Shown one piece after another: positions 1 through 32,288 of a stretch of 64,000 bases of DNA; position 1 is the stretch's first letter; every line of letters starts with the position of its first letter. This DNA is from Pecten maximus (taxonomy: Eukaryota). The translations under genes were made by a program, and so were the position numbers. The stretch is taken from the NCBI RefSeq assembly GCF_902652985.1, contig NW_022979151.1, positions 1-64,000 of the forward strand, read 5' to 3'. The notes below the pieces were generated by a model. That model had not been told where the DNA came from. It made no database searches and worked only from the letters and a program-made list of their open reading frames with translations.

Positions 1-1055
1 TCCCCGATCACGTTCAGATCTACACTGATGGCTCAAAAGATGGAGTAAAGGTCTCTGCAGCATGCTATTCCGACCACCATTGCTCTTCAATCCGCTTACC
101 AGATGATGCCTCTATCTTCTCTGCGGAAGCATGTGCCATCGATTTGGCCCTCAACCAAATCGAAGAACAATGCATTAGAAAGGCAATAATTTGTTCCGAC
201 TCTCTATCTGTCCTTCAGAATTTACAATCACGAGATCCAAAGAATATACTCATACAAAACCTTGTTTTACGAATATCTCGTATCTTAAAAAAATGCAAAA
301 TAACATTACTTTGGATTCCGAGCCATGTCGGAATTAAAGGCAACGAACTTGTTGACCGCCAAGCAAAACTTGCTCTAAATCTGCAACAAACAAATATTAA
401 AATACCATATACAGATTTCAAACCTGTAATTAGTTCTGCCATTCACAGTAAATGGCAGCAACGCTGGTCTTTCGAGACGAGCAACAAACTTTTTAAAGTA
501 CAACCAAAACTTAAAACATCAAAACCAAGTCGGAAGGATCGTAGAGAGGAAATAGTCCTCTCTCGGCTCCGTACCGGGCACACATATCCTACTCATTCGT
601 TCCTTTTGAAACGAGAGGATCCACCGATGTGTTATGCATGTGATGCTCAATTCACATTGGAGCATTTTTTAATAGAATGTTCCGATTTCAAGCACATTCG
701 TGATAGATACCCTTTTCAGTTCCGTGGACTCGAAAACAATATTTAGCTACTTGAAAGAAATCGATCTATTTTATAGACTTTGATGTCTTTTATGTTGCTG
801 TCTTTGACGTTCTATTTATAACAAAGTTCACATAATCTATTCGTACATATTACTTCATATAATCTATTCGTACATGTATATATTTTACCATTTTTAACCA
901 ACTTTTTTATCATTATGATCTAAATATACAATACGGATGGTTTTAAAAATGACAAATTTTATCTGATTTTAACTTTAAAAATAAAACTTGTTAGTATATT
1001 GTTTGGCCCTAAATGACCCTAGTTGTCGATGGGCCGTAAAACACAAACAAACAAA
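1..1055 (+). mobile_element. 3' end of I-clade (Nimb-like) LINE: RNase H, C-terminal CCHC, 3'UTR, (CAAA)n tail
   Basis: YTDGSK...ICSDS...WIPSHVGIKGNE RNase H motifs and CYACD..EHFLIEC; small deletion near 710; tail ggccctaaatgaccctagttgtcgatgggccgtaaaacacaaacaaacaaa shared with copies at 51-63 kb. Confidence 0.92.
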
Positions 1056-1379
1056 ATCTACCGGACAAGCCGACTAGGTACGGGATCACACTGAGACCTA
1101 GGCAATGGCGTAATCTGATAGAGAAAATGGACGAAATAAACTCTGCAATAAGACCGGATAATGAGGCGGAGAAAAGGAAGCAGTTGCTCCTCGAATTGTT
1201 AGCTGACAGGATGCTGGACTTGATAGAGGAGGCATCAAAAGAGAATTGCGCCGGATGTAAAGTGGATCATCCCTCGCAGGTGAAGCACATGTCCGGCGGA
1301 TGTTTATCGGAAATGGACGAAAAGATATCACACTATTATGACGAATGCCGGGATAGCCCATACCGAAATAAAGCACACT

Positions 1380-1850
1380 AAAGTATACTTTTATGCTACT
1401 TTAAGTATACACTTTTTCCTACTTTTTTGAAAAAGTACCAAAAAAGTATACTTTTTTTGTACTTTTCTGGACTTAGAAATTTTTCAGAGTACTTTTTCTG
1501 TACTAAATTTGGACTCTGAAATTTCTCAGAGTACTTTTTTTGTACTTTTCTGGACTTAAAAACTTTTCAGGGTACTTTTTCTGTACTTTATTTGGACTCT
1601 GAAATTTTTCAGAGTACTTTTTTTGTACTTATTCTGGACTTAGAAATTTTTCAGGGTACTTTTTCTGTACTTTATTTGGACTCTGAAATTCTTCAGAGTA
1701 CTTTTTTTGTGCTAAAATCTGACTTAGAATTTTTTTGAAAGATTGTGAAAATATGGATGTACTTTTTTCCTACTTTTTGGGACTTAGAATTTTTCAGCTA
1801 ATGCCATTGTGCTTTTTTTGTACTTATTATGGACTTAGAATATTTTCAGA
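1380..1850. repeat. Left subterminal array (~39-40 bp units, GTACTTTT...GGACT..GAAATT)
   Basis: Repeated gtactttttttgtacttttctggacttagaaatttttcaga-like units. Confidence 0.85.
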
Positions 1851-6984: not shown

Positions 6985-8281
6985 TCACTTGGAAATTACT
7001 ATGACGTTACGAGTCTGGTCTATTTCAAAGACGTCGTCGAATTCAGAGTACAATATGCAGGAGACAGTCTCCGTTAGCGTATTGGAAAAGGCTATCTCCA
7101 GTCTAACGTCCGCGTTTTGACTCGGAGACAGGTGCTCGTCCTCGCCAAAGGTCGGAGTCAACTGAAAGCCGTACAAAGCAAAGCCACGCGACCAGTCGTC
7201 ACGGTCGAGGGCATTGTCCGTATCGAGGTCGGCCTTGTCGGCGACAAGAAGGCCGTGACGTAGCACTGGGCTTTGTTGGCGAACTCCAATTTGTGGGGTC
7301 GATACGGTACACTGACGTTGTTTACAAACAACCCAACGCTCGATGCACCGTAGGACTGAAAGTTGAATGGATTCCTAGTGTATGAACCTGTATAGGCATC
7401 GCCCGCCACCAATCCCATAATGACCTTTGAGGGTAGTTTGCCTTGATCTACTTAGACAATATATTGTCCCAGATAAATGTCGACTAATTTGCGGGTATCG
7501 TGGCGACCTTGACATTAGAGCTTGTAAAAGGGTATTTGGCCGGAGACACCTCTAGGGCTTTGTTGTGCCTGACGAGCACGCCTGCGTTGACCTGAACACG
7601 ACATAGACGGAACATGACATCCTGTAGCTCGATCCTGTAATCCGGGTTCTGGACCCCCGACATCAATACGAACGGAGTCCTATTTCTATAGAGTTTAATG
7701 TCGAGATCGACTCCGTTCAATATGTATCGATTGAGATGACAGACGTCCTCGCACAGTCTGCCCAACATGTCGACCGTAGCGCTGTTCTTACTGAACTCGT
7801 TCCGCTCGAATAGTCCGCTATTAGCACCGTCCGGATCTGTCTCGTCCATACTCCCGGGCGTGTCCTGGTAGTAGAGTTGAGAGGTGAGCTGGCCTCTTTT
7901 AGAACTTATCCCGTAGTTCAAGAGTGTTTGTATATACGCCTTATATGCGTAATTACCCGAATTCAGCGACAGTAGCTTCCCTTGCAATGAAACCTCGACC
8001 TGACCCCAAAGAGTCTGGAGCGGCAGGTTGACGTAACCAGTCTGTTCCTTGGCGGAGAGGGGCGTGCCGTCCTGTTTGACGATGCGTGCCTTCACATACA
8101 ATACGCTCCTGTCGAGTGCTATATAATCGCTGCTCTGTCCGGAAATGTGAAACTCGACAGGACCGCTACCGCTGATCTGGGAGATGGGTCTGCAGTCCAC
8201 GTAGTATAGCTTCTCCACCGCGGCCTGCGTCGGTGGAAGGGAGAAAAGCATCAGCTCCGACGGAAGTCCTTCGTCCTGCAT
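6985..8281 (-). pseudogene. Polinton major capsid protein (double jelly-roll), with a premature stop and frameshifts
   Basis: N-terminal SELMLFSLPPTQ, YAYKAYIQTLLNYG, NPFNFQ, C-terminal FEIDQTRNV; split over ORFs 7484-8284, 7158-7418 and 6985-7266. Confidence 0.9.
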
Positions 8282-8556
8282 CACGAAAAATTAGTCTTTC
8301 TTCTCTTCTGGCGCGGAACACGCGTCGCTGATTTCCGTTTCCCCTGAGGGGCCTCTTGTCTGAGCTCCGATTTGGCTTGTTCGACCGTCTGTTGGACGGG
8401 GGAAACTATACGTATTTCGTCTCGTCGTTTCAAGGGCACTATGGAAGCACGTGCAGGACGTCCGACGCCGCCACTGCGTCGCTGCAAGCTAGAATCGGAA
8501 GCGGATTTCACAAAGAATCGAGTCCACTTCTCCACGTCCGGCAAATATACGGTCAT
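8281..8556 (-). CDS. Small Arg/Lys-rich protein, probable Polinton core/structural protein
   Basis: 91 aa, basic, VSPVQQTVEQAKSEL; sits between mCP and MCP with overlapping stop/start codons. Confidence 0.65.
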   Translation of the reverse strand: MTVYLPDVEKWTRFFVKSASDSSLQRRSGGVGRPARASIVPLKRRDEIRIVSPVQQTVEQAKSELRQEAPQGKRKSATRVPRQKRRKTNFS

Positions 8557-8966
8557 CTCAGGTAGTATCTAGGCTTGAAATGCAGAGTCACAGTGACGGG
8601 TTGTTTTAGGAATGTCGCGAGTGTTCCATCGCTCGTCCTAATTGTGAAGTCAACCGAGCGAGTGTCCTTTATTACCACCGGTATGTAATACGGCGAGGAA
8701 AACACGACCTGTTCTGTCTGTTCCGCCCGAATGCGTCTTAGCAATGGCTTCTGGTCTCCCGCCACGAATACCGATCCGATCAGATCGCTATACACGTAAA
8801 GGGGCGTGTCAATCTGATCTCCTATGTCGATCTCGCACAGACCGGCACACCATGTGTATTCATCAAATCGCACGGGAGTTTTAAGCTCGGCGGTGAAGCA
8901 ATGAGGCATGTTTGACGGATGACGGGACAAGCTATCGTCGCTTGACGCGACGACGTAAAAATCCAT
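8553..8966 (-). CDS. Polinton minor capsid (penton-like) protein
   Basis: FYVVASSDDS..HPSN..HCF..EL..P..W.AGL.EI N-terminus; LYVYSDLI..VAG..PLLR; VTLHFK C-terminus. Confidence 0.85.
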   Translation of the reverse strand: MDFYVVASSDDSLSRHPSNMPHCFTAELKTPVRFDEYTWCAGLCEIDIGDQIDTPLYVYSDLIGSVFVAGDQKPLLRRIRAEQTEQVVFSSPYYIPVVIKDTRSVDFTIRTSDGTLATFLKQPVTVTLHFKPRYYLR

Positions 8967-8974
8967 ATATCATA

Positions 8975-10105
8975 TCATATGTCTCTCACCGCATCGGCAT
9001 CTATCAAGCTATTATAATCGCTCGGCCAACCCATCCACTTAACGAGTAACTGTTTCTTCCTGTTACGTAACCTCTTCTTCAGGACGCGTTCTATGCGGTA
9101 TTGTAAACTTTCCGGGTCAATAACTCTCTGTAGCTCGCTCTCGTACACCGTCCCGCTAATCTCCCGTCCATTGTAATCCTTTAGTTTATAGATTGGAATG
9201 TTTTGTTTGTAAAACCGAGCAGCTATCGTAAATATCTCCCCAGTAAAGGTCTCGTGGAATGTTCTCGTGAAAGCTTGCCTCAGGTGTGAAATCCTCACTG
9301 CGTCGCCAACCTTGAACTTAAATACCGATCGGAGTTTTGGTTTTTTTACTTCTTTTTTAACACGTGTTGTCTTCCTCTTCTTTGTCTGGGGATAGTAGAG
9401 TTTCAGCATGACCTCGGCTTCGTTCTCCTCTGTGACGTCTGCAGGCGCCATCCCGTGCAACGCGGAATGCGGAGTCTGGTTGTAGCTCTTGACGATCTCG
9501 GGGAGAACGTCCAGGTATTGGTGGGTCTGCTTATGGTTCATGTAGCGGAAGAGACCGTTTCTTATCGTCTTTATCACCCTTTCCGCTACCGCTGCTTTAA
9601 CCTCATTGTCCGTGACGAAGTGTTCTATCCCCTTACGGCGGAAGTACGCCTCCAACTTCCGGGAGCAGAATTCCGCTCCTCGGTCTGTTCTGACCTTGAC
9701 CATCGTCCGTTCCCCGAGCACCTTATCGAATCCCGCTATCACGGAATCGGCCGTTTTGTTCTTTAGCGGGGCGACCATCAGATATTGACTAAAGTCGTCG
9801 ATGCATATCAGTAGGAACCTCACGTCCCTGTTGTCGGCACTGAGGTTCGACACATCCATCAAGTCGCAATCCCACTCCTTGTTTAGCCCGGCGGTAAGTA
9901 TTTGCTGGCGACGGAAGCGCCGACGTACAGGTCGGTTTAGGCTGTAGGGTTCCTGTCTCTGTAACCAATGTCTTATCCTCCGGAGACCTATGCGATGTTT
10001 CCCCTCCCTCCTAACTAGGCGATACAACTGCTCGGGACTTCGGAATGCCCTGGGATTCGACCAGTCAAAATATTTGTCAGCGAGGTATCTATCGACGTCG
10101 GCCAT
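8975..10105 (-). CDS. Polinton retroviral-like (rve) integrase with C-terminal chromodomain
   Basis: D,D35E (WDCDLMD, TDRGAEF, AER); YRIERVLKKR...LLVKWMGWP chromodomain; intact 376-aa ORF. Confidence 0.95.
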   Translation of the reverse strand: MADVDRYLADKYFDWSNPRAFRSPEQLYRLVRREGKHRIGLRRIRHWLQRQEPYSLNRPVRRRFRRQQILTAGLNKEWDCDLMDVSNLSADNRDVRFLLICIDDFSQYLMVAPLKNKTADSVIAGFDKVLGERTMVKVRTDRGAEFCSRKLEAYFRRKGIEHFVTDNEVKAAVAERVIKTIRNGLFRYMNHKQTHQYLDVLPEIVKSYNQTPHSALHGMAPADVTEENEAEVMLKLYYPQTKKRKTTRVKKEVKKPKLRSVFKFKVGDAVRISHLRQAFTRTFHETFTGEIFTIAARFYKQNIPIYKLKDYNGREISGTVYESELQRVIDPESLQYRIERVLKKRLRNRKKQLLVKWMGWPSDYNSLIDADAVRDI

Positions 10106-10304
10106 GTTCGACGAAGGCGCACGACACCAGAATGACTTCCTTTAAGTCGCAAAGCTGCGAGAGTGTCTCTGGAGACAGGGATAAGTCGCGTTTGCCCTTC
10201 CTGAGTTTGATCCAGCATCGCGTTTTACGTCGCGATATGCTGACACTGAGCCCTTCGTCTATAACACAGACCACCTTGTTACGCCCTTTCCATTGAACGT
10301 CCAT
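10089..10304 (-). CDS. PC4-like small ssDNA-binding/coactivator protein (71 aa)
   Basis: Beta-strand pattern then KRDLSLSPETLSQLCDLK; visibly homologous to the ORF at 56974. Confidence 0.6.
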   Translation of the reverse strand: MDVQWKGRNKVVCVIDEGLSVSISRRKTRCWIKLRKGKRDLSLSPETLSQLCDLKEVILVSCAFVEHGRRR

Positions 10305-10305
10305 A

Positions 10306-10986
10306 ATGAGTGCCTGTCCACTTCCGTTTCTCACCCCTTGTTCTATCTACGTTAGCGGGCCGACGCAGAGTGGTAAGACCACATTCACGCGTCGATTAAT
10401 AGATAACATAGAGCGTGGCGTATTGTCTCCTCCCCCGGAAAGGGTGATATATGCCTATTCCCAATGGCAGCCGGCTCTAGAGCGATTAGAAGCGGACCGA
10501 CCCGATGTAATCTTCTTTCATAGTCTACCGCACAAACAGCAGATCGAGTCGTGGAGCGCTGGCGGTAGGTCTTTACTTCTAGTTTTGGACGACCTAATAT
10601 TTAGAATCGTAGAAGATAGAGATTGTTTGGAATTATTCACGGTCGGTGTTCACCATAGCAACATCACCGTGGTTTACCTGTCTCAAAACGTGTTCCCGCC
10701 TGGCAAGTACGCGAGAAGCATAAATCTAAATGCTCATTATATGGTGCTCTTTAATAATCAGCGTGACGCCTTTCAATTGTCCGCACTCGCCCGGCAGCTC
10801 TTCCCTAAAAACGCGTCGTACTTCACCGACAGTTATAAAAAGGCAGTGGAGGATAAAGCGTATGGATACCTAGTCGTGGACCTGTCGCCTAGGACGCCCA
10901 CCAACTTGCGCACCGAAGTGTTTCCGGGTGAAGTGCCGACAGTGTATGTGCCGCGAAATCAGCAGCCACCTGACCGGCTAGTATGA
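10306..10986 (+). CDS. Polinton genome-packaging ATPase (A32/FtsK-like)
   Basis: Walker A GPTQSGKT, Walker B LLVLDDL, HHSNITVVYLSQN, YGYLVVDL. Confidence 0.95.
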   Translation: MSACPLPFLTPCSIYVSGPTQSGKTTFTRRLIDNIERGVLSPPPERVIYAYSQWQPALERLEADRPDVIFFHSLPHKQQIESWSAGGRSLLLVLDDLIFRIVEDRDCLELFTVGVHHSNITVVYLSQNVFPPGKYARSINLNAHYMVLFNNQRDAFQLSALARQLFPKNASYFTDSYKKAVEDKAYGYLVVDLSPRTPTNLRTEVFPGEVPTVYVPRNQQPPDRLV

Positions 10987-11375
10987 GCAAAAATCTTAAA
11001 TCGAATTGGAACTTCGTGACGCTGCTTGCTAGGACACACGCCGCTCAGCGGAAGCGAATGCTAGAATCGCTCACTGTATCTCAGACTCGTGCATTTTGCG
11101 AAATCATCAGAAACATTGTTTATAACCCGAAACTGCCGCCCTCTCCCCAGTACCTTCGACGTCTGAGGAGACATAAAAGGATACTATTGCGTCTCGCGGA
11201 GAGGAATTCTTCCTTGTCCGATAAAAAAAGGATTTTACAACGTGCCGGTGCCGTTATAGGCAAGGCCTTGAAACCTCTGCTACCGAAATTGGAAAGTGTT
11301 ATAAATGGCAACCGAATACGTTATCATTCCGAAGGAGCGTTACGAGAGGATGAAAGAAAGAAAGGAGACGCTTGA
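10983..11375 (+). CDS. Conserved basic Polinton protein (PW-like)
   Basis: Pattern L..L....RK..L...CEI..N...L...K..L..LA....KK.ILQ.G; immediately follows the ATPase. Confidence 0.75.
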   Translation: MSKNLKSNWNFVTLLARTHAAQRKRMLESLTVSQTRAFCEIIRNIVYNPKLPPSPQYLRRLRRHKRILLRLAERNSSLSDKKRILQRAGAVIGKALKPLLPKLESVINGNRIRYHSEGALREDERKKGDA

Positions 11376-11621: not shown

Positions 11622-14577
11622 GAGTCTCCATAACTGAGACGGCATTTAAATGTCTCCATGACTTAGACTAGTGTCTCCATAACTGATTTACAGTGTCTCC
11701 ATAACTTAGACTAGTGTCTCCATAACTGAGTTACAGTGTCTCCATGACTTAGACTAGTGTCTCCATAACTGAGTTACAGTGTCTCCATAACTGAGACTAG
11801 TGTCTCCATAACTGAGTTACAGTGTCTCCATAACTGAGTTACAGTGTCTCCATAACTGATTTACAGTGTCTCCATAACTGAGTTACAGTGTCTCCATAAC
11901 TGAGACTAGTGTCTCCATAACTGATTTACAGTGTCTCCATAACTGAGTTACAGTGTCTCCATAACTTAGACTAGTGTCTCCATAACTGAGTTACAGTGTC
12001 TCCATAACTTAGACTAGTGTCTCCATAACTGAGTTACAGTGTCTCCATAACTGAGTTACAGTGTCTCCATAACTGATTTACAGTGTCTCCATAACTGATT
12101 TACAGTGTCTCCATAACTTAGACTAGTGTCTCCATAACTGAGTTACAGTGTCTCCATAACTGAGTTACAGTGTCTCCATAACTGAGTTACAGTGTCTCCA
12201 TAACTGAGTTACAGTGTCTCCATAACTTAGACTAGTGTCTCCATAACTTAGACTAGTGTCTCCATAACTGAGTTACAGTGTCTCCATAACTGAGTTACAG
12301 TGTCTCCATAACTGAGTTAGTGTCTCCATAACTGAGTTACAGTGTCTCCATAACTGATTTACAGTGTCTCCATAACTGAGACTAGTGTCTCCATAACTGA
12401 GTTACAGTGTCTCCATAACTGAGACTAGTGTCTCCATAACTGAGTTACAGTGTCTCCATAACTGAGTTACAGTGTCTCCATAACTTAGACTAGTGTCTCC
12501 ATAACTGAGTTACAGTGTCTCCATAACTGAGACTAGTGTCTCCATAACTGAGTTACAGTGTCTCCATAACTGAGTTACAGTGTCTCCATAACTGATTTAC
12601 AGTGTCTCCATAACTGAGTTACAGTGTCTCCATAACTGAGTTACAGTGTCTCCATAACTGAGTTACAGTGTCTCCATAACTTAGACTAGTGTCTCCATAA
12701 CTGAGTTACAGTGTCTCCATAACTGAGTTACAGTGTCTCCATAACTGAGTTACAGTGTCTCCATAACTTAGACTAGTGTCTCCATAACTGAGTTACAGTG
12801 TCTCCATAACTGATTTACAGTGTCTCCATAACTGATTTACAGTGTCTCCATAACTTAGACTAGTGTCTCCATAACTGAGTTACAGTGTCTCCATAACTGA
12901 GTTACAGTGTCTCCATAACTGAGACTAGTGTCTCCATAACTGATTTACAGTGTCTCCATAACTGAGTTACAGTGTCTCCATAACTTAGACTAGTGTCTCC
13001 ATAACTGAGTTACAGTGTCTCCATAACTTAGACTAGAGTCTCCATAACTGAGTTACAGTGTCTCCATAACTTAGACTAGTGTCTCCATAACTGAGTTACA
13101 GTGTCTCCATAACTGAGTTACAGTGTCTCCATAACTGATTTACAGTGTCTCCATAACTGATTTACAGTGTCTCCATAACTTAGACTAGTGTCTCCATAAC
13201 TGAGTTACAGTGTCTCCATAACTGAGTTACAGTGTCTCCATAACTGAGTTACAGTGTCTCCATAACTGAGTTACAGTGTCTCCATAACTGAGTTACAGTG
13301 TCTCCATAACTTAGACTAGTGTCTCCATAACTTAGACTAGTGTCTCCATAACTGAGTTACAGTGTCTCCATAACTGAGTTACAGTGTCTCCATAACTGAG
13401 TTACAGTGTCTCCATAACTGAGTTACAGTGTCTCCATAACTTAGACTAGTGTCTCCATAACTGAGTTACAGTGTCTCCATAACTGATTTACAGTGTCTCC
13501 ATAACTGAGTTACAGTGTCTCCATAACTGAGTTACAGTGTCTCCATAACTGAGTTACAGTGTCTCCATAACTTAGACTAGTGTCTCCATAACTGAGTTAC
13601 AGTGTCTCCATAACTGATTTACAGTGTCTCCATAACTTAGACTAGTGTCTCCATGACTTAGACTAGTGTCTCCATAACTGAGTTACAGTGTCTCCATAAC
13701 TTAGACTAGTGTCTCCATAACTGAGTTACAGTGTCTCCATAACTGAGTTACAGTGTCTCCATAACTTAGACTAGTGTCTCCATAACTGAGTTACAGTGTC
13801 TCCATAACTGATTTACAGTGTCTCCATAACTTAGACTAGTGTCTCCATAACTGAGTTACAGTGTCTCCATAACTGAGTTACAGTGTCTCCATAACTGAGT
13901 TACAGTGTCTCCATAACTGAGTTACAGTGTCTCCATAACTGAGTTACAGTGTCTCCATAACTGAGTTACAGTGTCTCCATAACTTAGACTAGTGTCTCCA
14001 TAACTGAGTTACAGTGTCTCCATAACTGATTTACAGTGTCTCCATAACTTAGACTAGTGTCTCCATAACTGAGTTACAGTGTCTCAATAACTGAGTTACA
14101 GTGTCTCCATAACTTAGACTAGTGTCTCCATAACTGAGTTACAGTGTCTCCATAACTTAGACTAGTGTCTCCATAACTGAGTTACAGTGTCTCCATAACT
14201 GAGTTACAGTGTCTCCATAACTGAGTTACAGTGTCTCCATAACTTAGACTAGTGTCTCCATAACTGAGTTACAGTGTCTCCATAACTGAGTTACAGTGTC
14301 TCCATAACTGAGTTACAGTGTCTCCATAACTGAGTTACAGTGTCTCCATAACTGAGTTACAGTGTCTCCATAACTGAGTTACAGTGTCTCCATAACTGAG
14401 TTACAGTGTCTCCATAACTGAGTTACAGTGTCTCCATAACTTAGACTAGTGTCTCCATAACTGAGTTACAGTGTCTCCATAACTGAGTTACAGTGTCTCC
14501 ATAACTGAGTTACAGTGTCTCCATAACTGAGTTACAGTGTCTCCATAACTTAGACTAGTGTCTCCATAACTGAGACT
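11622..14577. repeat. Minisatellite, ~135 copies of GTGTCTCCATAAC followed by one of TGAGTTACA / TTAGACTA / TGATTTACA / TGAGACTA (21-22 bp)
   Basis: Read directly; near-invariant core with four interspersed variants. Confidence 0.97.
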
Positions 14578-15199: not shown

Positions 15200-17521
15200 T
15201 CAATTTTTCTTTTCTTTGCGGTGGCGTCTTCGGGGAGATTCCTGCAGTTCCATTGAACTTGAACCAACACACTCTTCCTCGTCGTCTATCGAAAAGGCGT
15301 TCCCGTATAGGGTTTCAGCAGGAGGCAGAGGTTTAAGTTTTGATGGCTTCCTTCTTCTCCTGCAGACTTTGCCGCATCCGCGGCGAAGGGTGAGCAGTAC
15401 CCCGAGAACAATCACCACCGTCACCAGAACCGCAATAATGATGCTTAAGACTGAAAAAAAAAATAATTAAAATAATATTTTATAGTACTACGTGTAGTAT
15501 AATAAACCGACTAATATTTAATTTATCTTAAAGCGTAAATACTGCTTGTCACAGAAATGGACAAAACTAACACCCATTATACAGAAATGTATCAAATTAA
15601 GGCATCAGACGAAAAATATTAACAAAGTCCGTAAAATTGCTGGAACTTAACTGATACTTTCAAATACAAGATAGAGAGGAGGAATTTTGTCGGGACGCAC
15701 AAAATTATTATCATTTTTTTTTTTTGCAGTTGAAACTTTTGAAGGGTGGTAATATCACAAAGTTTGTAACTTTTGTTGTTGTATCAAATTATATACTAGT
15801 AACTGCCTATTCTAGTTTTCAATCGACCATATTGCTTTGTCGGCGATTAGCATCTTTAATCGACTTGTAATAGACTGTTATCAAGGGATTTTAATTTTCT
15901 AAACATCTAATGTTCTGAACTAACCTCTGATCCTGGAGTTTAGCAGAGAGTCGGTTGTAGAAGTCGTTGTCGTCGTCGTCGTCGTGAACAATTCCCGAGG
16001 GACGGGCGATGACGTTATATCCGGCCATGTGTCGTTGGTCGAATTATCGTGACCGGTGGTGACGGTGGTGGTTGTAGTAGGTCTCCATGTTTTCGGATTA
16101 GGAAAGGGCTGGAAATAAATAAATAGATCGAATCTATCTATCAGAAATAGCTCGCGCCCGAATACACAGGACCGGACAGTGGACATCAAACGTAATCGGC
16201 TTAGCTTTTATCCGTACAGTACATGTACCAGTCTCTGACTTAAAAAAAATTACAGGTGAGTTGATAACTTTTGTTACAAACAAAATAAAACTACCAGGAG
16301 AAAGCATGTTAGTCATTCTCCATTTTGGTATATGATATTTCAAATTTAATAGCAGAATCAGGATGTTATCGACGTTTCCATCTTAACAGACCACCGATGC
16401 TAGAACCGCAGTGGGCGGGGCTTAACTAAGCCTTAGGGAACTTTATAGATCTATACACCGACCATCGGTCAGCTACTAAATGTTATGTAACGATTGTAAA
16501 GATCAGATAAACGGTATGTACCGTTCTCGTTTTAAATGTCCTCCTTGTCACAACGGTAGAGGTCGTTTTCACAGTGGTCTGGGTAACCTGAAATTTCAAA
16601 ATTAAAATAAATTATAACGATGATCCTTTTAATTACGAGTATGTTTTTCTCATGTATTTATTAATTTATTTATTGTTATCTACTTTCGAAATTATTTATC
16701 AGTACACAGCAATATCTAGCGCCCAAATACACACAGTGGAGATCAAACGTAATCGGCTTAGCTTTTATCTTAGATAGTCGGTTTGTGTACAATGACCATC
16801 GCTCCGGCAGTCGCACTGAGACGTTGCGTAATGATTGAAAGCTAAAAGGAACGATGATCATTTCATTAAATACGTAAGTCTTAAAAATAAATCGTACCTT
16901 TCTTGTTCCACTTGTTACAGTCGATGTAGTTTCCGCCGTCGTCGTTAAATTGAACTGAAAGTATATAATTGAATGCATAAAAAATATTTATCTATTTTTT
17001 TTTTATATATATTTGTACTTTTAAAATTATTATCCCACCCACGTCTACATAAGACTTCAGCTTAAGTCAAGATAAATAAAAGAGAAAATTAAAAAAAATT
17101 AAGACTCTCACCATTATAAAACATATTTCAATAACATGAAATGATGTTATTCATTTAAAATGGATCAACCACGTCTCGCCGATAAATGTTAATAATAATT
17201 AAAACAACAACAACAACTTACTTCGCATGGGATGCTGTTTAGGAAAACAATCGGGAACCCTTCGAACACCGAACAGTTTAGGTTTGTTCTCGACACTCCT
17301 ATGAAGGTGACGTTTGGAGCCTGGTCACGGGTCAAATTGAAAAACGTCAGTCTTTCGAAGGTTATCCATGTCACTTCGAGGATGTCCGAGGAGGCAGCTA
17401 CAAAGACATTCCCCGGACATGCAAGGATGTCTCCTTTTGGTGTACATTTCTGTGGAAATGGATCTGCGAACGTCCCACCGACGAGTAGAAAAAGTGTTGC
17501 TATCAACGCCATCGCTGTCAT
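15200..17521 (-). CDS. Five-exon type I membrane glycoprotein, ~285 aa (signal peptide, Cys ectodomain, Thr-rich stalk, TM, basic/acidic tail)
   Basis: Exons 17521-17222, 16954-16898, 16587-16522, 16108-15925, 15450-15200; all GT-AG with compatible phases 0,0,0,1; TM VLSIIIAVLVTVVIVLGVLLTL; six NxS/T sites. Confidence 0.8.
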
Positions 17522-17927: not shown

Positions 17928-18386
17928 CTATAATATTTTATCCAAAAGGTAATCTACGTATTCGTCTTCAGATGCTGGAGCTGAGCATGATTCTAGAATA
18001 TAATGATAATAGTGTTGATCTACAAGTCTTTCAGACTCGTCAATATCAATATTGTCTGCACAAGGAATATTTCTTGCTAGAACCCTCAATATCCGTTTAA
18101 TACCGCGGTCAGTGAACAGTTCACTCGGAATACAATATTCCAAAAGATAGAAAACTTTGATGTTTGGTGTTTCGAAAAGTGCACACTTGAACGTATTTTT
18201 TACAGCATGGAAGATGTGATAATATTCGGGATAACATTTCCTAAATATAGCTACAGCTTGTGGATAGATTTTGTTTTCCAAATCCCCCATTAATGTTTTC
18301 TGGTCCTCGTTACACAAGTAATACACCATATAGTTGAAACTGAAAGTATCTATTGAAATCATTATTTGTTTAATGAGGTATTTCAT
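17928..18386 (-). CDS. Hypothetical Polinton accessory protein, 152 aa (may have an upstream exon)
   Basis: Open frame just downstream of pPolB; frame stays open upstream to a candidate acceptor near 18440; no motif recognised. Confidence 0.5.
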   Translation of the reverse strand: MKYLIKQIMISIDTFSFNYMVYYLCNEDQKTLMGDLENKIYPQAVAIFRKCYPEYYHIFHAVKNTFKCALFETPNIKVFYLLEYCIPSELFTDRGIKRILRVLARNIPCADNIDIDESERLVDQHYYHYILESCSAPASEDEYVDYLLDKIL

Positions 18387-18469
18387 GCGCTGGTCAAGTT
18401 GTTCACATGTCAGTCGAAGAAGCGATATGGGTGTCGTTTCTAGAACAGATAAATGAATATGTTAACAAG

Positions 18470-21100
18470 TTAGAGAGTTATATCTAGAGGCTCTGTGCGT
18501 ATGCCACATGCTAGGACTTTCCTTTTGGGATAATAATTACTAAAGCCGTTTCGATCGTGTGCATATGTAACCATACGGTTATCTACCACACGGAAGCCTC
18601 TGTTTGTAGCCCCACGGAGCCCTGAATTGAATAGTACATCTTTATACATGGCGATTGGATGCCTCAAATTTCGCTTGTTGACACCTTTACAGCTAAATTT
18701 ACTGTTTGTTTGGTTGGACTCGGTCGTGTGTTCCACGCAGTATGTCTTGGAGCAAAGTGCCACCATCGCGTCGCCCCTCATTTCCTCCTTAAAGAGACCA
18801 GGGGTCCTGCGCGTGTACGCTTTTGTTTCCGGTGAACTAGGGTCCGGGAACCATTGTTTTTTTTCGTTATCAAAATCGGTTTTCATAGCGGGGAACACCA
18901 GGTCTTCTATGTTTTCGCTTGAAAGAGCCATATAATATGAATCCGTGTCCATTTCTATTAATTCGAAGTCATCTCGATGTATGTACTTATCGAGACAATT
19001 ATAATAGAAACTTAACATGCGCAGTTTTGCATACTGCAGGATAAAATAACCTATCTGTATAGGGATATCCATACGAATTTGTTTTTTCGCTGTTACCACG
19101 TCGTATTGACCGTGGCCAAGTTCAGTCAGACTTCGGAAATGTTTCGAATTCACGATTTCGTATACTTGACATTCTGAATCGAGATATTTTGTGTTCGCGT
19201 GTTTATCCTTTCGCATTAACATTGAACCGTAGGACGCGTTTCCTTTTAATTTGCTTGTTTCACTAATCACACCGAGTCTCGGGTCCCTATCCCCAGCGCG
19301 CCTAGCATCGCTGATTTTCTCTGTGAATTCCTTAAAACAACGATCGGGTGAAAATTCGAGCACTGTATGCATGCGAGTTACTTCCAAACCGTGATTGATG
19401 TACCATTTCAATAGCGGCGTCGCTATCAGCATTTTTTTAGCCGCCATCGCACCAATAAGGAGTTTGCGCGGTTTCTGAGACACACCGAGTTGATCAGCCA
19501 CCTGTTTCATGTAGTCGCCTACCTCATCGGGAGACACGTGGGCGTTTCCGAACAACGGGGACATCTCGGAGAATTTCTCACGTAAATGAACGGGAACAGA
19601 AATATCAACTTCGACCGCACCAAATAATTCGTTCCGTAAAACATGATCAAGGACCTCGTCGGTCGTCATGGTTTTCTTATTTTCCGTAAATCTTCGGTAA
19701 CTGTCACAGTGAGAATTTAATGAGGTATCCTCCCTTACCATACGGTCAAACTCGCATTCCCACATTCTCCGGATTTGATAGCCGCGTTATCTTATATAGC
19801 GACTGCGCTTTTCACTGTGTCTCATGCGTTTCCTCTGTAGCGCTGCATTTGGATTGCGTAGGCATGTATGGGAATGGTAATAGCACCCGTCGAATTCAAA
19901 CACCGTTTGCGATCGATTGTCGAATCCGTCCACGCGATATGGTCCTATACGAAATTCTCTGTCGGAATTTAACGCCTGTTTGATATCGACGTCTTCCGTT
20001 TTAGATATCCAGTCCAACCATTTAAAAGCTTTAAGATATTTGTCTCTCCTTTCTAATTTGAATCCGGTTTCCTCGCGTCTTACGGAACAATAACCAGTAG
20101 GCATCGGTTCTGCCAAACATCCTAGATAAAGAGAATTTGCATCCAGACCCAAAATGGTCTTACACACTTTTCTCCATTGCGAATACGCGTTTTACCCTTT
20201 TCGTGGTAACGATTTAAGACTATAGACGGACCACCGACTATATTCTTCTGAATAAGCTCGTGCACTTTTTTGTCTCTATTGCTGAACAGTGAAACATGTA
20301 TCTTACCTTTGACCGATCGAAATAGTAGATTACGCGCTACACCCGAGACTGATATGGTAATTTTGAAGACATCTACTCTCTCTTCCTGAATATAATAGTT
20401 GAGTAGTTGCTGCACGGCATCTCTGAAAGGCCCTACGTCTAAATTATTGTAATATATAAGATAATCTTTGAATGTTTTCATATTCTCATTCACCCACAGG
20501 CGCTCTAATTCGGCATATTTTTCCTCGCCGGATAAGGGTTTCTCCGAAACATTCATGTGTGACAGAACTTCACCGTGCGAATAACCATCTCGAATTAAAT
20601 ATTCGTATTGAATTATTTCTTCTTCTAAAACATTTTGTTGTTTAAGAGAACTGTAAAAACTTTCATACGGCGGTAGTTCTCGGTAGTTGAGCTTGTCGGG
20701 TGAATCCAAAAACTCAACAGAAATATCCCTTGCGTAGGTTTCCCGGGTGATATGCTTTTATAAATGCATCATAGGACGAACCAGCCGCTAAATAGTTACT
20801 GATGTCTATAAACTTGAACTCGTCAGTTGCGATACACATGAACTGGTTTGTTTTCTTAACAACGAAGTTATCATCGTTCTCGCTTAATTTCAAAGCTCGA
20901 ACTAATCTGGTTTTAATCAAATTAATGTCGTATTTCTGTGAATTGAATCCTATGACGGGTATTTGTCCTATGTAGGTTTCAAGTCGTTTCTTAAGTCGAG
21001 ATAACTTCTATGCTTATCTTTTTCCTCGTCTGCGTCATCATCGTCGTCGTCGTCGTCATTTGTCAATTCTAATTCAATGCTGTTTATGATGTCGTCGTAC
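18470..21100 (-). pseudogene. Protein-primed family B DNA polymerase with Vsr-like nuclease insert; frameshifted and N-terminally truncated at the LTR
   Basis: Exo II GFNSQKYD, Exo III YNNLDV, motif A LDANSLY, motif B KLKGNASYG, motif C MDTDS, KTY and KGV; insert RVDG..FEFDGCYYH..WECE; split over four or more ORFs. Confidence 0.92.
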
Positions 21101-21892
21101 TGTGACAAGGCTGGTTGCTAGGGAATTAGCTCGTATAGGCCAGCGTTGTCACGTAGTATATAGGAATCTTCAACAAACAAAGATGAATCTTGTTTCTGTG
21201 TCCAAATAGATGTTTTATTCGTGGCGTCTTGTTCGAAAGTAACAAGAACCACCTGGACACAGTAAGTTAAGAATCATCGGAACTTTCCTAAACCAATCAA
21301 ATTACGTTTTACAAATTACTTCGGCTGAAGTTTCATCTATTAACCAATCAAAACTAATTTAGCGTAATGGTCAGTAGCTCTGTTTGTTTACCGAACTGGC
21401 CATGACCGGTTAATTACTGGTTTAGACCTGTCACCAATATCTCAGGTTAGCTGAGGTATTGTGACGTAACAATTGTCACTAGACCCCTTAATTGCCGGCT
21501 AAGTGAAAACATTTCTTTTGAAGTTATTGGACATATGGCCTGACACTAATTCCTAAAACGACTCAGAAATAACAGCTTGGAACACCTGTGATCGAATCTT
21601 TTAAGGACAGCTTTTTATATGTTTGTTTATCGCTGACATATTGACTGACATTCTAACGAAGGCTTATATCTTGTAAACACTTTGTAATCCTGATGTGTTA
21701 TAATACAACTTTTAAGGAATAGCGGACATTCCTGTTCAAAATAAAATCTTAAAGTCAAAATTATCTTTCTCATTTTAAGTGAAATACAAAAATTAAATTA
21801 TCTAAACTAGAAGTCCTATTGATATAAAATATATCGTTTAATTTTTGCTTTATTTTGAAACCAAATATGACAGAGTGTTTAACACTGCGACA
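21101..21892 (-). repeat. 3' LTR (792 bp, short form)
   Basis: tgtgacaagg...ctgcgaca; near-identical to the ends of 32300-34119; PPT-like GGAGGAAA adjacent on the minus strand at 21893-21900. Confidence 0.92.
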
Positions 21893-22672
21893 TTTCCTCC
21901 GGGCTTCAAAAACCAATTCCTCCGGAATTGCAAATTGATATAAGGAAAGAAAAAAACAACAACATAAAACATGTTTGAAAAATCAACATATGTCAAACAA
22001 CGAAATTAAAAAAAAATGTAAAAAAAATAGTTATATACAACATCATAAGTAAAAGAACATGTTCAATCAGTAGACATGAGATGGATCACACCAGGCTTGT
22101 GTCAATGGATATAGTTGTTGTACACATGTCACGGAAATGCAGGAGAGATAAATTCAAGTCACGAAATAAATCCAAAGGGAGAAAACTCAAAACGAAGGTG
22201 CACAGGTATAATCCGTAACGAAGTAAGTTGGGTCCCTTTCACAACTACTTTATTCAATCCACTTTTATGTACCGGAAGTGGAAAAACACAGATTGTACGT
22301 CTCAAGGTTTCCTCGCAGAATCGTGCATGGATATGTTGACGTCGACATTAAAACAACACAGAATTAATCCACCAGTGAATACACTGTTTGTTCGTGACCA
22401 TGTGTGTTCCTTATGGAAATTGTCACATTAACTATCACAATAAAAATGCCTGTTTGTTGTGTGATCCAGTTAAACGAACAAGAAATACGAGAAATTCAAA
22501 GGTTATCATGCATTCCCAGTACATATGATCTGATGGCAAAGCAAACTCTTAAGTATACGATGAAAAAGGTTAAAAGAGAAAAAAAAAATCATAATAAAAA
22601 TCATAAAATGAGATATCTACATATGTATAGTGTCAAATGTGGGAGGATTGAAAATCCATTTGAGCATGGAGT

Positions 22673-24875
22673 TCATGCCGTAGCTGTCAACTTTGGGTAA
22701 ACCGACTCGACGGTGGGCTCAGAGGTTGCAGAGAGATCTTTGACCTGAACTGGTAAGATGACGTCACCTATGCGTTTATATAGCAATGCATTGAAGGGCT
22801 TTGAAATAATGTTATGGGTCCTGTATGTCAAAAGAGGGTCAAGCTTTATGTCACTGGGCAAACTCCACTTTGTATTAAGTCCGGTTACTTCTACGTTCAA
22901 GCCTGCCCAGTCAACAAATAAAAATGATCGTAACCCGAAGCTAACTCTAAAATCTTTCAATGGGTATTCTGAAGTAAACGACAACGAATTATGGGCGTAT
23001 GGTATTTTCCGTATGGGAATAAGAACTGTTGATTGCTCGTTAGATAATTCGAGCACCAACTGAAGCTTATTAGACCTACAATATTTGTATATCAGATAGA
23101 TCACCAGGGCAATGATTGCTAACGTGCCTAAAATTTCAGATGTGGAATACACATGTTGAAGAGGAAAGGTAAATGGGAGTTCTGTTGTAGTTGGAACGGA
23201 GGGTGTAGAATAATGAAATATTGGTATTGAGTAAGTCTTTTGAGCCTTGTGCAATAACGTAACAACTGTTGCGAGTTGGCGATATTTTTGAAAGAGAGCA
23301 ACGAATGCTAAGAAACTCAAGATCGCTACGGAAGTAGATAAGAGCGAAAACATTAGGGCATAATTGAAACTCGGAACAAACTTAGCTGCATCATCTAGCA
23401 TTGTTTCAGATAGAGTTTGAAAAATGACTCTATTTTGCCTAGCGCTTTCCGAAATGGTCTTGATATCAAGGCTGGCTTTTTGCTCACTAGCTATCAAACT
23501 TGAAAAATTGTGGGTAAAAAGTTGAAAATGTGGAACTTTAACATCTAACGGTTTTAAAAATGCCGAATCAGGTGTCAAGTCGTCTAGAGAGGAATTGAAA
23601 AACTGCTGTAGTAAAATAAGATTCACCGCATGGACCATCGTTATATCGTGTGTTTGGTTCCTACATTCAGACCAATGTTGCGGTATAAAGAATGATTTGG
23701 TTGACAGTGAACATTTACATGGAACCGAAATGGTACAGAATGAGCATCCTTCATAAGTTGTACTACTGTCTTCACAGTTTATGTCAAAACTTGAAATATT
23801 GATCAATAGAAAATGAGAAGAATTCAAGCTTACAATTTTTGGAGCAATGACATCTTGTTTGAAATGAAATACACAATTTTGATTGATCGCTCTTAATTTG
23901 CTATGAAAAAGACTCAGGAAACATGAGTTTTTAGTATCATTCCGAAATACAAGATGTCGTTCACAGTGCCAAATGTGATTGTGATGTGCACAAGATTTCA
24001 AATCTCTCCTTTTCAACTCAGCGAAATATTTATTGTCAGATGACAAATCCATGAGGTTGAAGTTTTTCTTCAATATAATTTAAAATATTCGTTAGGACAT
24101 CGTCCGGAACTAACAAGGGAGATAATTTGCCCTGTAATGTACTTAATACACCCATCAGTAGCTCCTCATATCGGGTCAATACTCTAAGAGACAGTCTTGT
24201 TTGTTTTGTCATAGCAGCTACTAATTGCGCTTGTGCAATTTCTGCTGAAATGAGGGACTTATTGAAATTATCTCCTATTAATTCAATTGCATTATGGTTA
24301 TCAGTTACAGCATCAAACGTGTTGGTAAGCCTATGGTCAAAATTCCTAACAGCAGCAGTAAAAGTACCTATCTGTTTCGAAGCAGCCTGTGCCATTCTCT
24401 GTTGGTTTGCCCTAATCATTGCGACATATCTAGATAATTGCTCTACATCTGAGGTGGTTGAAGTGCCAAACAGAGTTTTAGCTAAAGAGCCTATCAATGG
24501 GAGTAAAGACCTACGTTTCCTACTCATCGAAAAACGGTTTAGATTGTGATGAGGTAAAAGTTTCTTAATCTTTGACAAAATTGTTCCTACATCTAAACGC
24601 GTCTGCTTATGTAGAGCCACAATTTCAGTTATTGCTTCTTGATACCATGGGCATTGTCTACAATTCAGGGGTTTTTCCGATACAAAAGGAAAAAGAGGTA
24701 AGTCCAACTCAAAATAATGTGTCCACTGGTCTGCCGTTGGGTAAAGTGATCCTTCATTCTTGAAGGTAACACCATAGTTTGGTAAGGTTTTTATACCGTC
24801 ACGGGTTGTTATTCCTGCTTTCCCAATTGATACGGCCGTACAGAAAAGTAAACAGAAAAAAGGGAAGGTGGCCAT
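22673..24875 (-). pseudogene. env: Env, class I F-type fusion glycoprotein (baculovirus F/gypsy Env-like); frameshift or deletion near 24040
   Basis: Signal peptide, furin site RKRR followed by fusion peptide SLLPLIGSLAKTLFGT, heptad region, Cys-rich segment, TM at ~23290-23365, second hydrophobic segment at ~23085-23135. Confidence 0.88.
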
Positions 24876-24888
24876 CTCGTCAAGAGAA

Positions 24889-24925
24889 CCTACAAAGACA
24901 CCAAAGGGAGATTTTTAAATAAAAA
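24889..24925 (-). promoter_or_regulatory. Splice acceptor for subgenomic env mRNA
   Basis: Minus strand ctccctttggtgtctttgTAG|G, 14 nt upstream of the env ATG at 24875. Confidence 0.65.
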
Positions 24926-26285
24926 GAAATAATTTCATTATCGATCAATGGTAGTGAAAAAAAAGGTGGGAAATATGCGTCGACTCATATTTAACCCTAG
25001 CACTAGTTTACCCCTAGATTTGCTAAGGTAGGTATTGTTTTTAGACTATCATTGATGTCCACTATCAAAAATAGAGAAAGAAAAAAAAATGAATCTTTAA
25101 AAACAAAAATGGCCCCTAGAACTTATTTCTGAGAATTTTCTTAGGATTTCAGCAGATAAAAAGAATAAACAAAATTCTGTATTCCATGACACGGCAAAGA
25201 CCTTTATGGCTTCACATTTCAATATCACCTAACTACTCTTGAAATCTGGATTTTATCATGAACCTACTATATATTCCTATGGTTCACACAATATCAACTT
25301 TAAAGAAAGGACAACTGAAACTACATACATCTCCTACAAAAATTCGCTTGACATGTTACTATACGTATGCGAAATATTATTGAATCGACAATATATCGAA
25401 CGTTATGCTAACCATAGTGCAATTAAGTGTTAGCATCTCTTAGCTAACTACACTTTTCAGCCTGCTTACCACGAAAGAAAAAAAAAATTCAAAAACACAT
25501 CTCATGTACACTTTCCAATTAAATAATGAAAAGAAAAAAAAAATACCTCTTTCATTCCACTTTTCTACTAAACTTATCACTCTCACATTGAAATGGAAAT
25601 ACTGCTTAAATTAACACTAGTTTTGTGTCTATGGTAACGATATAATGGTCTATACACTTTTAAAATACTTTTTAGCCTTACCTAACCTTTTCTTTTTGCG
25701 CCCTTGTTTTGTATGAGTTCTGTTATATTCATCTACCCATTCTTTTTGAACATTGCTGGCTGGCTCCCATGTTGTAACGCTAGTTCCTTGCCATTTAATT
25801 TTTAGCTGTTGAATCCCATTCCTAACTCTACTGCCTAAAATTTTCTCGAATGGATATTCCTCTTGGGATCTATCGTCGAGGGGTTCAGTACTAGCAGGAT
25901 CGTCATGTGTAGGGTCGGGGTCTGGGATATTCTGTCTCTGAAAATCGACTAGATCATCCTGTGTCTGGTGATCGGGATTCTGGTTCAACTGAGCCTGAGG
26001 TTGGACCTCATTGAACCTATTTCTTTGGTCAGTGTGATAGTAGTGCTTTAATCTAACTGCATTGACTAAGGACTCTACAAGCTTACCTGTGTCTACGTTA
26101 CGTAGTTTGTAGGTGTAGTTGGGACCTAGGCGTTCTATCATGTAAGGACCCTTCCATTTGAGATGAAGTTTTGATGACTCACCTTTTGTGATGTGTGGGT
26201 CTGACAATAATACCGCATCACCTACCTTATAGTCTGGGACTTTGGCTGATGCGTCGTGGTGTACCTTTTGTCTTTCCTTTGCCTT

Positions 26286-28403: not shown

Positions 28404-30510
28404 CTATGTTTACCTTGGCTATTTTGTGTGTCATGGACTTATTGTCGATGTATTCCTGAATAGCTTGTCTATGATTTTTGCCTACCTTGTCTTTTGGGAT
28501 CAGTTGAACATCGATTGGCATCCTCATTTCGGTGCCATGCACCAAGAAATACGGGGAGTACTCAGAAGACGATGATGGCGCCATTCTGAATGCCATCATG
28601 ATACCTGGAATTTTTGACGGCCAGTTAGTCTGGTCACCGTCACTACAAGCTCGTAAGCACTGTGCTAGCGTACTGTTCATACGCTCAACCACGCTGTTCG
28701 TTTGTGGATGGTACGAGCTAGTAGTGCTACGGCCAATGTCAAATAATTCGCACAGGGCACCTACTAGTTTGGAAGTGAAGTTCTTACCTCTGTCTGATAC
28801 GAGATAGCGGATTGCTCCATATCGTGCTATGATATTGGTATACAATACTCTAGCAACTTCAGTAGCCTCTTGGGAACGCAAACAAAAAGCTTCCGGCCAC
28901 TGTGTGAAGCTATCTACGACCAACAAAATGTAGGTATATTTGTCCTTACTTGTAGGTAGTGGTCCTAGGATGTCCATGTGCCATCTTTCAAACTTACCTG
29001 CAACCGGTAGCGGTGTTAAAGGTACCTTAGTGGCATGGTAGTTGCGTTTAGCCAACTGACACGCTTGACAGGACTGAACATAGTCCTCTATCTCAGCGTA
29101 CATATTAGGCCAGTAGTACCTAAGTTTGATAGCACCGTACGTTTTTTCAAAACCCAGATGTGCACCGCCGGCATGGCTATCATGGAATGATTCCATTACA
29201 TTTCTATGAAAGCCATTTGGGACAGCGACACGTCTGACAATTCTGGAAATACCTGGAACAGCTTTTGCGGCGAGATTCAGAATGTGATACAAAACACCAT
29301 TTTTCCCAACTTCATAGGAATTTGACTTAGCATCAAGCTGTCTAGCAGCTCTTTTGTTTTTAGGAACGATACCCTTTTCCTTATAGTCCAAAATTGGTTT
29401 AAAATGTGTATCGCCATGTTGTGACTGAATAAGTTCTTGCAACTGCATCTCGTCTACATTAGGTGTATTACCTGGTTGGAATTTGGCAAGATCGATAACT
29501 GGTTCATCGTCTAGCTCAGGTGCACTGACCTCCATGACACTGGGTATTGTGTCTGATGTACGAGTAATATCTGTCTTGAATTCGATTACACAGGTCTCAT
29601 CCGTGTTGTCGTCGACTTCTAATACTTCCATGTCGGGGGATGCTGTAAGAGCATTTACCGACAGAGACTTACCTTTTTCATCTCCAGTGTCGTAATCTCG
29701 ACGAGATAAGGCATCCGCGTTTTGGTTTGTTACCCCAGGTTTATGATCAATAGAGAAGTTGTACCCTTGGAGTTTTAATGACCATCTAGCTAACCTACCT
29801 TGCCTGTCCTTGATTGTCTTTAGAAACTTGACAGTAAGGTTGTCTGTATACACTTGGAAGTGTTTATTAGCAAGGTAAGGATGGTAGACTTTTATGGCTT
29901 CAACGAGAGCAAGACATTCTCTTTCTGATACATCCCAGTTGAGTTCATTTCCTCGTAGAGCTCTACCTCCGTAAGCTATCACTCTTTCTCTTCCCTGATC
30001 ATCTTTTTGACCTAAGATATGACCTATTGCAGTACCTGATGCGTCAGTGGCCAAAATAAAAGGCTTATCCATCTGGGGAAATGCGAGAATGGGAGGAGAG
30101 ACCAACGCCAATTTCAGTTTTTGAAAAGCTTGTTCGCATTCGTCAGACCAGCGAAATTTGGTATCTTTCTTAAGTAGCGCGTTCAAGGGTTTCGCTACCT
30201 TTGCGAAGTCTTTGATAAATCTCCTATAGTAATTACAAAGACCGGTAAAAGCTCTAACGTCTTTAACTTTTCTTTGCGTTGGAAAGTTTCTTACCTTGTC
30301 TGTTGTTGCAGGGTTCACTTCAATACCATCTTTGGACAGGAAATGTCCCAAGTACTCCACTTTTTTCAGTGCAGATGGTGTAAGTGCGTGTTGAAATCTT
30401 TGCTGAAAATTAGTATGTCATCCACATAGACCAGTACATATTTCCAGAAAAGACCCCTGAGCACTTGTGCCATCACCATTTGAAAGCTCATTGGCGCATT
30501 CATGAGACCA

Positions 30511-31010: not shown

Positions 31011-31142
31011 TACTGAATCTGATACACTATTTTTGAATACAATATTTACAAAATTGTCGTTCAGTTCTGTAGAAAAACAAGGACTAAGAGAGTTATTCGG
31101 CCTAGACAAGGGAACCCCTTTAACCTGGTCAGGCGAAAAATC

Positions 31143-32270: not shown

Positions 32271-32288
32271 CCGGGACCATCGTGGAAA

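Follow-up and report, generated by a model that had tools for sequence, protein, structure and literature searches.

Results and Discussion

The window that we analysed, a stretch of 64,000 nucleotides from the scallop Pecten maximus (RefSeq assembly GCF_902652985.1, contig NW_022979151.1, positions 1 to 64,000), contains a decayed Maverick (Polinton) and within it, at 15200..17521 on the minus strand, a gene of five exons. The order of the element is broken major capsid protein (MCP), minor capsid protein, integrase, packaging ATPase, 133-codon open reading frame (ORF), 22-bp tandem array, five-exon gene, 177-codon ORF and protein-primed DNA polymerase B (pPolB), so that the gene is indeed placed, as annotated before, between the capsid/ATPase module and pPolB, with both MCP and pPolB broken. 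The MCP (6985..8290, minus strand) is split into two frames and was assigned from its position, from its conservation over at least 96 genomic matches and from what we take to be double jelly-roll features. An open frame at 8553..8969 (minus strand), which we take from position and conservation to be the probable minor capsid (penton) protein, is followed by an open retroviral-type integrase with a chromodomain (8975..10141, minus strand; PF00665, E 2e-9, and PF00385, E 2e-6), an open packaging ATPase (10297..10986, plus strand; PF02456 Adeno_IVa2 at E 0.002, which lies under the curated cut-off) and the 133-codon ORF (10974..11375, plus strand), which is conserved in relatives. The 22-bp array inside the element (11651..14574, about 135 copies) is shorter in the second copy of the same insertion, and relatives have other simple repeats at its slot. 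Beyond the gene, the conserved 177-codon ORF (17928..18461, minus strand; dN/dS 0.20) separates it from pPolB in elements of this lineage. The C-terminal part of what we take from PolB motifs and synteny to be pPolB (18470..21080, minus strand) is broken by a stop and frameshifts and truncated by an LTR retrotransposon; the N-terminal ~555 residues were not found within the window, and in a relative of 84% identity the frame is open over 1400 codons. A small Maverick ORF with a weak PC4-like match (1040..1381, plus strand) is displaced from the MCP by an insertion of about 5 kb.

A Pfam scan returned no match for the MCP, minor capsid protein or pPolB of the window, and the terminal inverted repeats (TIRs) of this copy were looked for and not found, its ends being lost. 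An adenain-like cysteine protease was sought by tblastn with one divergent query, and neither the window nor any of the four relatives C3976, C46, C8 and C19 gave a match at E ≤ 1; other scallop Mavericks do have the protease. The element fits a Maverick/Polinton, by its presumed pPolB (motifs and synteny), by the integrase with its Pfam matches and by the TIRs and target duplications of its relatives.

The remainder of the window holds further features. The LTR retrotransposon in pPolB (about 21168-34120) carries gag/pol and an env-like gene matching Baculo_F (PF12259, E 5e-8); its LTRs start identically, and a 147-bp tandem array at 26382-28042 is internal to it. Another, separate open frame at 40419-40790 (minus strand) encodes a hydrophobic helix and, in its tail, GFEEVELRT, which by eye resembles GFEEVNLYT in the tail of the C46 copy; a head exon upstream of this frame was not recognised. 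The stretches 37690-38700 and 45117-47962 contain a long 18/36-bp coding-like repeat, open in several frames, and nearby ORFs that we take to resemble a YqaJ-type nuclease with a PHD finger and a THAP plus DDE transposase.

The first-pass annotation had proposed five exons joined by GT-AG introns in phases 0, 0, 0 and 1 into a protein of about 285 residues, and this chain was borne out by the translation of each exon separately and by RefSeq gene models. All exons lie on the minus strand and together comprise 286 codons including the stop, giving a 285-residue product. Exon 1 (17222..17521, 300 nt) encodes a predicted signal peptide (about residues 1-19) and a four-cysteine head with three sequons. 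After intron 1 (16955..17221, 267 nt, phase 0), exons 2 (16898..16954, 57 nt, one sequon) and 3 (16522..16587, 66 nt) encode a Thr-rich stalk and are separated by intron 2 (16588..16897, 310 nt, phase 0). Intron 3 (16109..16521, 413 nt, phase 0) leads to exon 4 (15925..16108, 184 nt), a Thr/Pro-rich stalk segment with PFP at its start and two sequons, and intron 4 (15451..15924, 474 nt, phase 1) to exon 5 (15200..15450, 251 nt), which supplies a transmembrane (TM) helix, a juxtamembrane Cys and basic patch, a Tyr, an acidic cluster, a basic end and the stop. All four introns start with GT and end in (T/C)AG preceded by a pyrimidine tract, have 4-14 stops in every frame, and are 23-38% GC compared with 42-53% for the exons.

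The RefSeq model P0003 (Pecten maximus LOC117318252) matches exons 1-3 in every letter and lacks introns 1 and 2, then runs into intron 3 and ends there, leaving exons 4 and 5 unjoined; its start is an in-frame ATG 39 nt upstream, and in a 72%-identical copy a stop interrupts that extension. The model of this 72%-identical copy, P0001, has all four introns at the same positions, intron 3 included. Intron 1 keeps its placement across the family, after the last Cys and in phase 0, in copies down to 16-30% identity, and copies of about 55% identity lack exon 3 and have four exons. Given the models P0003 and P0001 and the conserved intron positions, the exon chain is beyond chance. We also sought splice junctions at the four introns in four scallop runs assembled as contigs and found none (0/4), at low depth and with an RNA status that was guessed; several contigs cross exon-intron borders unspliced, and two of the four runs resemble one data set. 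These contigs neither confirm nor exclude splicing of the window copy.

The leader, four-Cys ectodomain, Thr stalk, six sequons, TM segment and tail described earlier are all present by sequence, hydropathy and pattern. Four cysteines stand at residues 26, 35, 83 and 99 of the 285, which include six N-x-S/T sequons; the stalk (exons 2-4) has 48 Ser and Thr in 102 residues (47%), and the hydrophobic segment of exon 5 reaches a maximal Kyte-Doolittle value of 3.27 over 19 residues. The product is therewith predicted to be a type I membrane glycoprotein with signal peptide, one TM helix, a basic stop-transfer patch and luminal sequons. Homologues conserve this layout in sequence and hydropathy, the acidic cluster of the tail recurs across copies, and the stalk varies in length. 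In the tail, we take the Cys to be a palmitoylation site and the Tyr and the acidic cluster with its CK2-type sites to be sorting signals.

The first-pass annotation had further suggested structure prediction of the ectodomain followed by a Foldseek search, and this gave a confident model with leucine-rich repeat (LRR) proteins on top, at weak scores. AlphaFold, run with 20 sequences, returned five models of a short parallel beta solenoid (pLDDT 82-85, the model used reaching 85); a model from 8 sequences was also built. The top Foldseek matches were GPIb-beta/GPIX, variable lymphocyte receptors (VLRs) and TrkA, at E 0.13-0.38 (5wk4_B, E 0.13; 3rfe_A, E 0.38, TMq 0.45), while VIA-align placed TLR5, TLR3, LRIM1 and TrkA first (Z 5.0-5.6, rmsd about 3 Å over 73-77 residues). 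The Atlas leads were LRR proteins and C21orf62 with scores below 0.9, and an oyster homologue gave TM 0.56-0.68 to LRR models. None of 20 members matched a Pfam LRR family at E ≤ 1, so that canonical LxxLxLxxN repeats were not picked up by profile; no member scanned matched any Pfam family, and a profile run against PDB yielded one LRR protein, at E 1.9. In BFVD nothing passed E ≤ 0.001 (best E 0.24), and the 50 best matches listed hold no adenoviral entry. Since three methods agree on LRR proteins, the head is likely a minimal LRR-type solenoid of about 80 residues with two disulfides and about three short turns. The matches are weak, in a range that may mean a mere common arrangement, and do not establish membership in the LRR family.

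For the distribution of the gene, the scallop genome (G000) was searched with five members as queries and fetched stretches were scanned with profiles. This gave at least 27 family loci, a lower bound because the searches score best candidates only; one of them, C2, was recognised by eye, its exon 1 being internally deleted, and one other stood at a profile E of 0.007. Of the 27, 26 have Maverick core sequence (pPolB, integrase, ATPase or capsid) within 16 kb, so the question raised at the outset, whether copies always sit inside Polintons, receives a largely positive answer for this genome; the sole exception is a degraded fragment. Seen from the polymerase, the window's pPolB matches 23 places and the gene is carried at 20; of the remaining three, one is a fragment of pPolB, one an element that has been rearranged and one a contig whose end falls short of the slot. 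Mavericks are defined by TIRs ending in (AGT)2 and by a 6-bp target duplication, according to the accessible part of PMC8097293. In four elements the gene lies within AGTAGT-ended TIRs, with a 6-bp duplication in three (C3976, C46 and C2) and without it in C15. In the close lineage the gene comes after pPolB; in elements with a pPolB identity of about 40% it comes before, and one carrier shows a pPolB identity of only 22%. The family is not universal in Mavericks, because 11 of 12 loci picked from other groups among the at least 96 MCP matches lack it and the twelfth has a remnant. Copies broken by frameshift, truncation or deletion occur at C3976 (both copies), C17 (several), C2 and C1853. 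The copies on C13 (2.97 Mb) and C1853 had been considered as independent insertions and were rejected as such; they share the LTR insertion and the flanks with the window and are therefore the same insertion. We consider it almost certain that the gene belongs to the virus.

Two further observations concern the scallop elements. At C419:40690-53173 a Maverick forms an inverted duplication about its centre, has two near-identical copies of the gene and lies beside LRR-rich, Toll-like host ORFs. The MCP matches include a group of about 15 near-identical open copies, which suggests a recent expansion of Mavericks in the scallop genome.

Beyond this genome, 1.84 billion representatives were searched with a profile, which matched 13, and a second search matched 14; the matches are scallop models, Argopecten irradians, the oysters Magallana gigas and M. 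angulata and further contigs. In oysters, P0050 and P0019 show the leader, four-Cys head, Thr stalk, helix, Cys/basic patch and tail, and homologues of this layout are also present in bay scallop. The oyster proteins are of 250 and 259 residues, and the oyster homologues are almost invariant between the two species. Three Logan entries contain the entire 250-residue frame on contigs of 903-1507 nt. The common oyster form (P0033, genomic-type) reads 52 codons into intron 1; coding sequence plus 52 intron codons would need 912 nt, more than 903 nt, so that this contig at least must be spliced or intronless. The full-length oyster ORFs on short contigs indicate spliced transcripts. No relative was found in viral_contigs (two queries) or metagenome_contigs (one query), and a profile search for a fused form found nothing among proteins of 274-2000 residues, which is weak evidence. 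The Maverick residence of the family rests on the loci of the scallop genome.

The comparison of dN/dS across copies, also put forward at the start, showed purifying selection between lineages. Eleven pairs were examined for exon 1. Against the 72%-identical copy, dS is 0.99, dN 0.17 and dN/dS 0.17 (P 1e-10), and two deeper pairs give 0.09, while synonymous sites are saturated in four further pairs. For the same 72% pair, dN/dS is 0.095 for pPolB, 0.12 for MCP, 0.44-0.55 for the stalk exons and 0.11 for the tail. Exon 1 is under purifying selection between lineages. Near-identical pairs, on the other hand, differ neutrally or not at all (1 synonymous and 4 nonsynonymous changes). Between the window and its C13 twin, 4 of 858 nt differ in exons, 13 of 1464 in introns and 71 of 6940 in core genes, so that within this one insertion the exons show no significant excess conservation over core genes or introns (P 0.14 and 0.32, with the low power of 4 exon differences). 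Constraint between lineages together with neutral change after insertion means that selection acted during the replication of the element and not post-insertion.

The gene had been pointed out as intact although MCP and pPolB are broken. This is true and not special, as integrase, ATPase, minor capsid protein and two other ORFs of the window are open too. The suggestion that the gene was possibly kept by the host did not hold up: besides the open neighbours, near-identical copies change neutrally, many are broken, and conservation after insertion shows no excess. A domesticated viral gene is likewise not supported, given the persisting Maverick context and the fact that no post-insertion selection was detected (4 exon differences, low power).

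Head identities track pPolB identities (Mantel rho 0.74, p 0.0002, n=10 elements), in a test that dropped one element without an alignable pPolB segment and whose result is inflated by shared ancestry. The C19/C13e pair is supported in both the exon-1 and the pPolB tree, and the other two groups are compatible; the exon-1 tree is poorly resolved, with one of seven branches well supported. Between groups the head retains 26-35% identity versus 54-70% for pPolB, and such far faster divergence is expected of a host-facing protein.

The 3'-end of the gene is more elaborate in some relatives. Four divergent elements, C15:1139027 (L082), C233:23935 (L109), C2:43882385 (L108) and C17:16186161 (L111), have, behind the membrane exon, a second one that encodes a further hydrophobic segment and a basic tail of the RRSxRxRRxPxRY type. 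Phase 1 is clear in three of the four for the donor of the stalk as well as for both acceptors, and the RefSeq isoforms X1 and X2 of one locus (P0005, P0006) use the two last exons alternatively; the window copy is without the second one. Additionally, another Maverick group has a second family of the same build, namely a leader, four Cys, an intron right after the last Cys, a Ser/Thr stalk and a membrane exon. Its member at C17:14916097-14916408 (L170:4097-4408) lies downstream of pPolB, and there are at least 13 further matches; Maverick genes are near four of seven scanned loci and absent near three. Homology of the two families was considered and was not shown (hhalign probability 0.5%, E 0.12); a profile of the first family, run on 11,397 peptides, matched one second-family member only, at E 0.026. 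One second-family tail region contains YNLRPR repeats, which to us recall the chromatin-binding motif of foamy-virus Gag. Bivalve Mavericks may hold an E3-like "surface-protein slot", filled by at least two spliced, fast-evolving glycoprotein families, some with two alternative membrane-tail exons, a proposal we make tentatively and with somewhat less than even confidence.

Adenovirus E3 glycoproteins are accessory type I surface proteins that are expressed by splicing and act on host cells, in a virus that is non-enveloped and replicates with a pPolB. The scallop protein is like them in being an accessory type I surface protein with spliced expression. The ectodomains of E3 CR1 proteins are Ig-like, and we found no sequence or fold homology to E3 CR1 (Pfam for all members; the 50 best BFVD matches listed). 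Thus, the scallop protein may work like E3 but is no member of the E3 CR1 family. For comparison, E3/49K is described in the accessible part of PMC11321000 as a shed surface protein that binds CD45.

The structural neighbours GPIb-beta/GPIX, GPIb-alpha and the lamprey and hagfish VLRs match the head non-significantly and at 10-18% identity, and they differ from it in that the scallop head is smaller and has no canonical LRR or LRRCT Pfam match. GPIb-alpha and VLRB also place an LRR head on a Thr/Pro stalk.

Among Mavericks themselves, the premise that Polinton core genes are typically intronless and the predicted virions non-enveloped needs qualifying. Vertebrate Mavericks are reported to be intronless (PMC8097293, accessible part), whereas nematode Mavericks have intron-bearing cargo (wasp proteases and krma kinases) and the fusogen MFUS-1, as far as the accessible text of Widen et al. 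goes (10.1101/2022.07.12.499685). The nematode cargo resembles our gene as intron-containing genes amid intronless core genes; it consists, by the same partial source, of soluble enzymes in a variable region that are exchanged between elements and species, while the scallop family encodes a membrane protein, diverges together with pPolB and has its introns at the same positions even between deep lineages. MFUS-1 is also Maverick-encoded with a signal peptide and one TM helix, but is described there as a gB-like class III fusogen of 866 residues, compared with 285 residues, splicing, an LRR-like head and a mucin-type stalk in scallop; the head of about 80 residues leaves no large gB-like ectodomain, and the protein is no class III fusogen. 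Adintoviruses carry PLA2X, GasderminX and Cupiennin, likewise membrane-related accessory genes of animal Polintons, none of which is described as a spliced type I glycoprotein in the accessible part of PMC8502044. From similarly partial texts, 10.1101/2023.08.22.554363 deals with pPolB2 elements of molluscs, P. maximus among them, cryptophyte Polinton-like viruses have group I introns (PMC12220804) and coral polintoviruses have frequent genes that lack annotation (PMC11131425). In the literature consulted, mostly outside subscription journals and Repbase reports, no description of the scallop glycoprotein family was found. The family is a real, undescribed accessory family of bivalve Mavericks.

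What does the protein do? The idea of a type I membrane protein gene that is spliced, borne by Mavericks and undescribed stands, given the 26 of 27 loci, the purifying selection and the co-divergence with pPolB. We give somewhat better than even credence to the reading that this spliced accessory gene product is an adenovirus-E3-like, host-modulating surface protein of the infected cell, an analogy that appears to fit the anatomy of the protein. The host spliceosome would process the transcript, and the protein would pass through ER and Golgi. A stalk of about 100 residues, N- and O-glycosylated, would then lift the head above the glycocalyx, where the fast-evolving LRR-type head could bind and dampen a recognition or signalling protein of the host at the infected-cell surface. 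The tail would sort the protein and any bound partner into endosomes.

A long glycosylated stalk with a small head is typical of viral attachment proteins, and we count this for a different reading, in which capsids would leave the cell in a membrane or vesicle that displays the head on its stalk, making the protein a particle-associated attachment factor. Stable inheritance with pPolB would suit this, as would the missing adenain-like protease in 5 of 5 elements of the lineage (one query), with which capsid maturation may differ, and nematode Mavericks with their signal-peptide and TM fusogen are proposed to be enveloped in the accessible part of 10.1101/2022.07.12.499685. However, the fold is like host LRR ectodomains and not like a fusogen or viral structure (the BFVD result above), the ORF lists of two TIR-bounded elements hold no fusogen-sized ORF, and 11 of 12 MCP loci from other groups are without the family, which leaves attachment unlikely. 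The lineage-specific, fast-diverging heads, the sorting-type tail and the transcripts apparently present in oyster runs could also be accommodated if the product of an integrated element occupied or removed a receptor used by related Mavericks or other viruses. Such superinfection exclusion is rather improbable, for integrated copies decay neutrally, which is unexpected if carriers gained protection.

It is doubtful to a still greater degree that the elements acquired a host gene as exchangeable cargo, or that the host domesticated a viral one. With a single degraded fragment among the 27 scallop loci outside a Maverick context, with co-divergence with pPolB, many broken copies and no excess post-insertion conservation, little speaks for host keeping, even though the oyster homologues are nearly invariant between two species and nematode Mavericks have intron-bearing cargo in the accessible part of 10.1101/2022.07.12.499685. 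The host-type spliceosomal introns and the LRR-like fold do point to an ultimate host origin. Finally, it is scarcely credible that the exon chain arises by chance in decayed sequence and that no protein is made from it, since the junctions absent from scallop-run contigs (low depth, guessed RNA status) are set against conserved intron positions and phases, a dN/dS of 0.1-0.2, RefSeq models and full-length oyster ORFs.

Conclusion

In summary, we describe a spliced and selected surface glycoprotein, the E3-like host-modulating function of which we favour, in deeply diverged Mavericks of a bivalve. To our knowledge, the genes of animal Mavericks have been described as intronless, and almost nothing is known of how these elements interact with the host cell. 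Adenoviruses are thought to descend from Polintons, and the finding draws a parallel with the adenovirus E3 region in elements of farmed shellfish. It would mean that Mavericks use host splicing and the secretory pathway, and that part of the Maverick gene set escapes ORF-only annotation. If the proposed surface-protein slot is true, its occupants, which ORF-based annotation misses, would be the first receptors or immune modulators that animal Polintons direct at their hosts, and would speak for an arms race of these elements with invertebrate immunity. The gene thereby offers a concrete protein for testing whether Mavericks act as infectious viruses and make contact with receptors or immune cells of the host.
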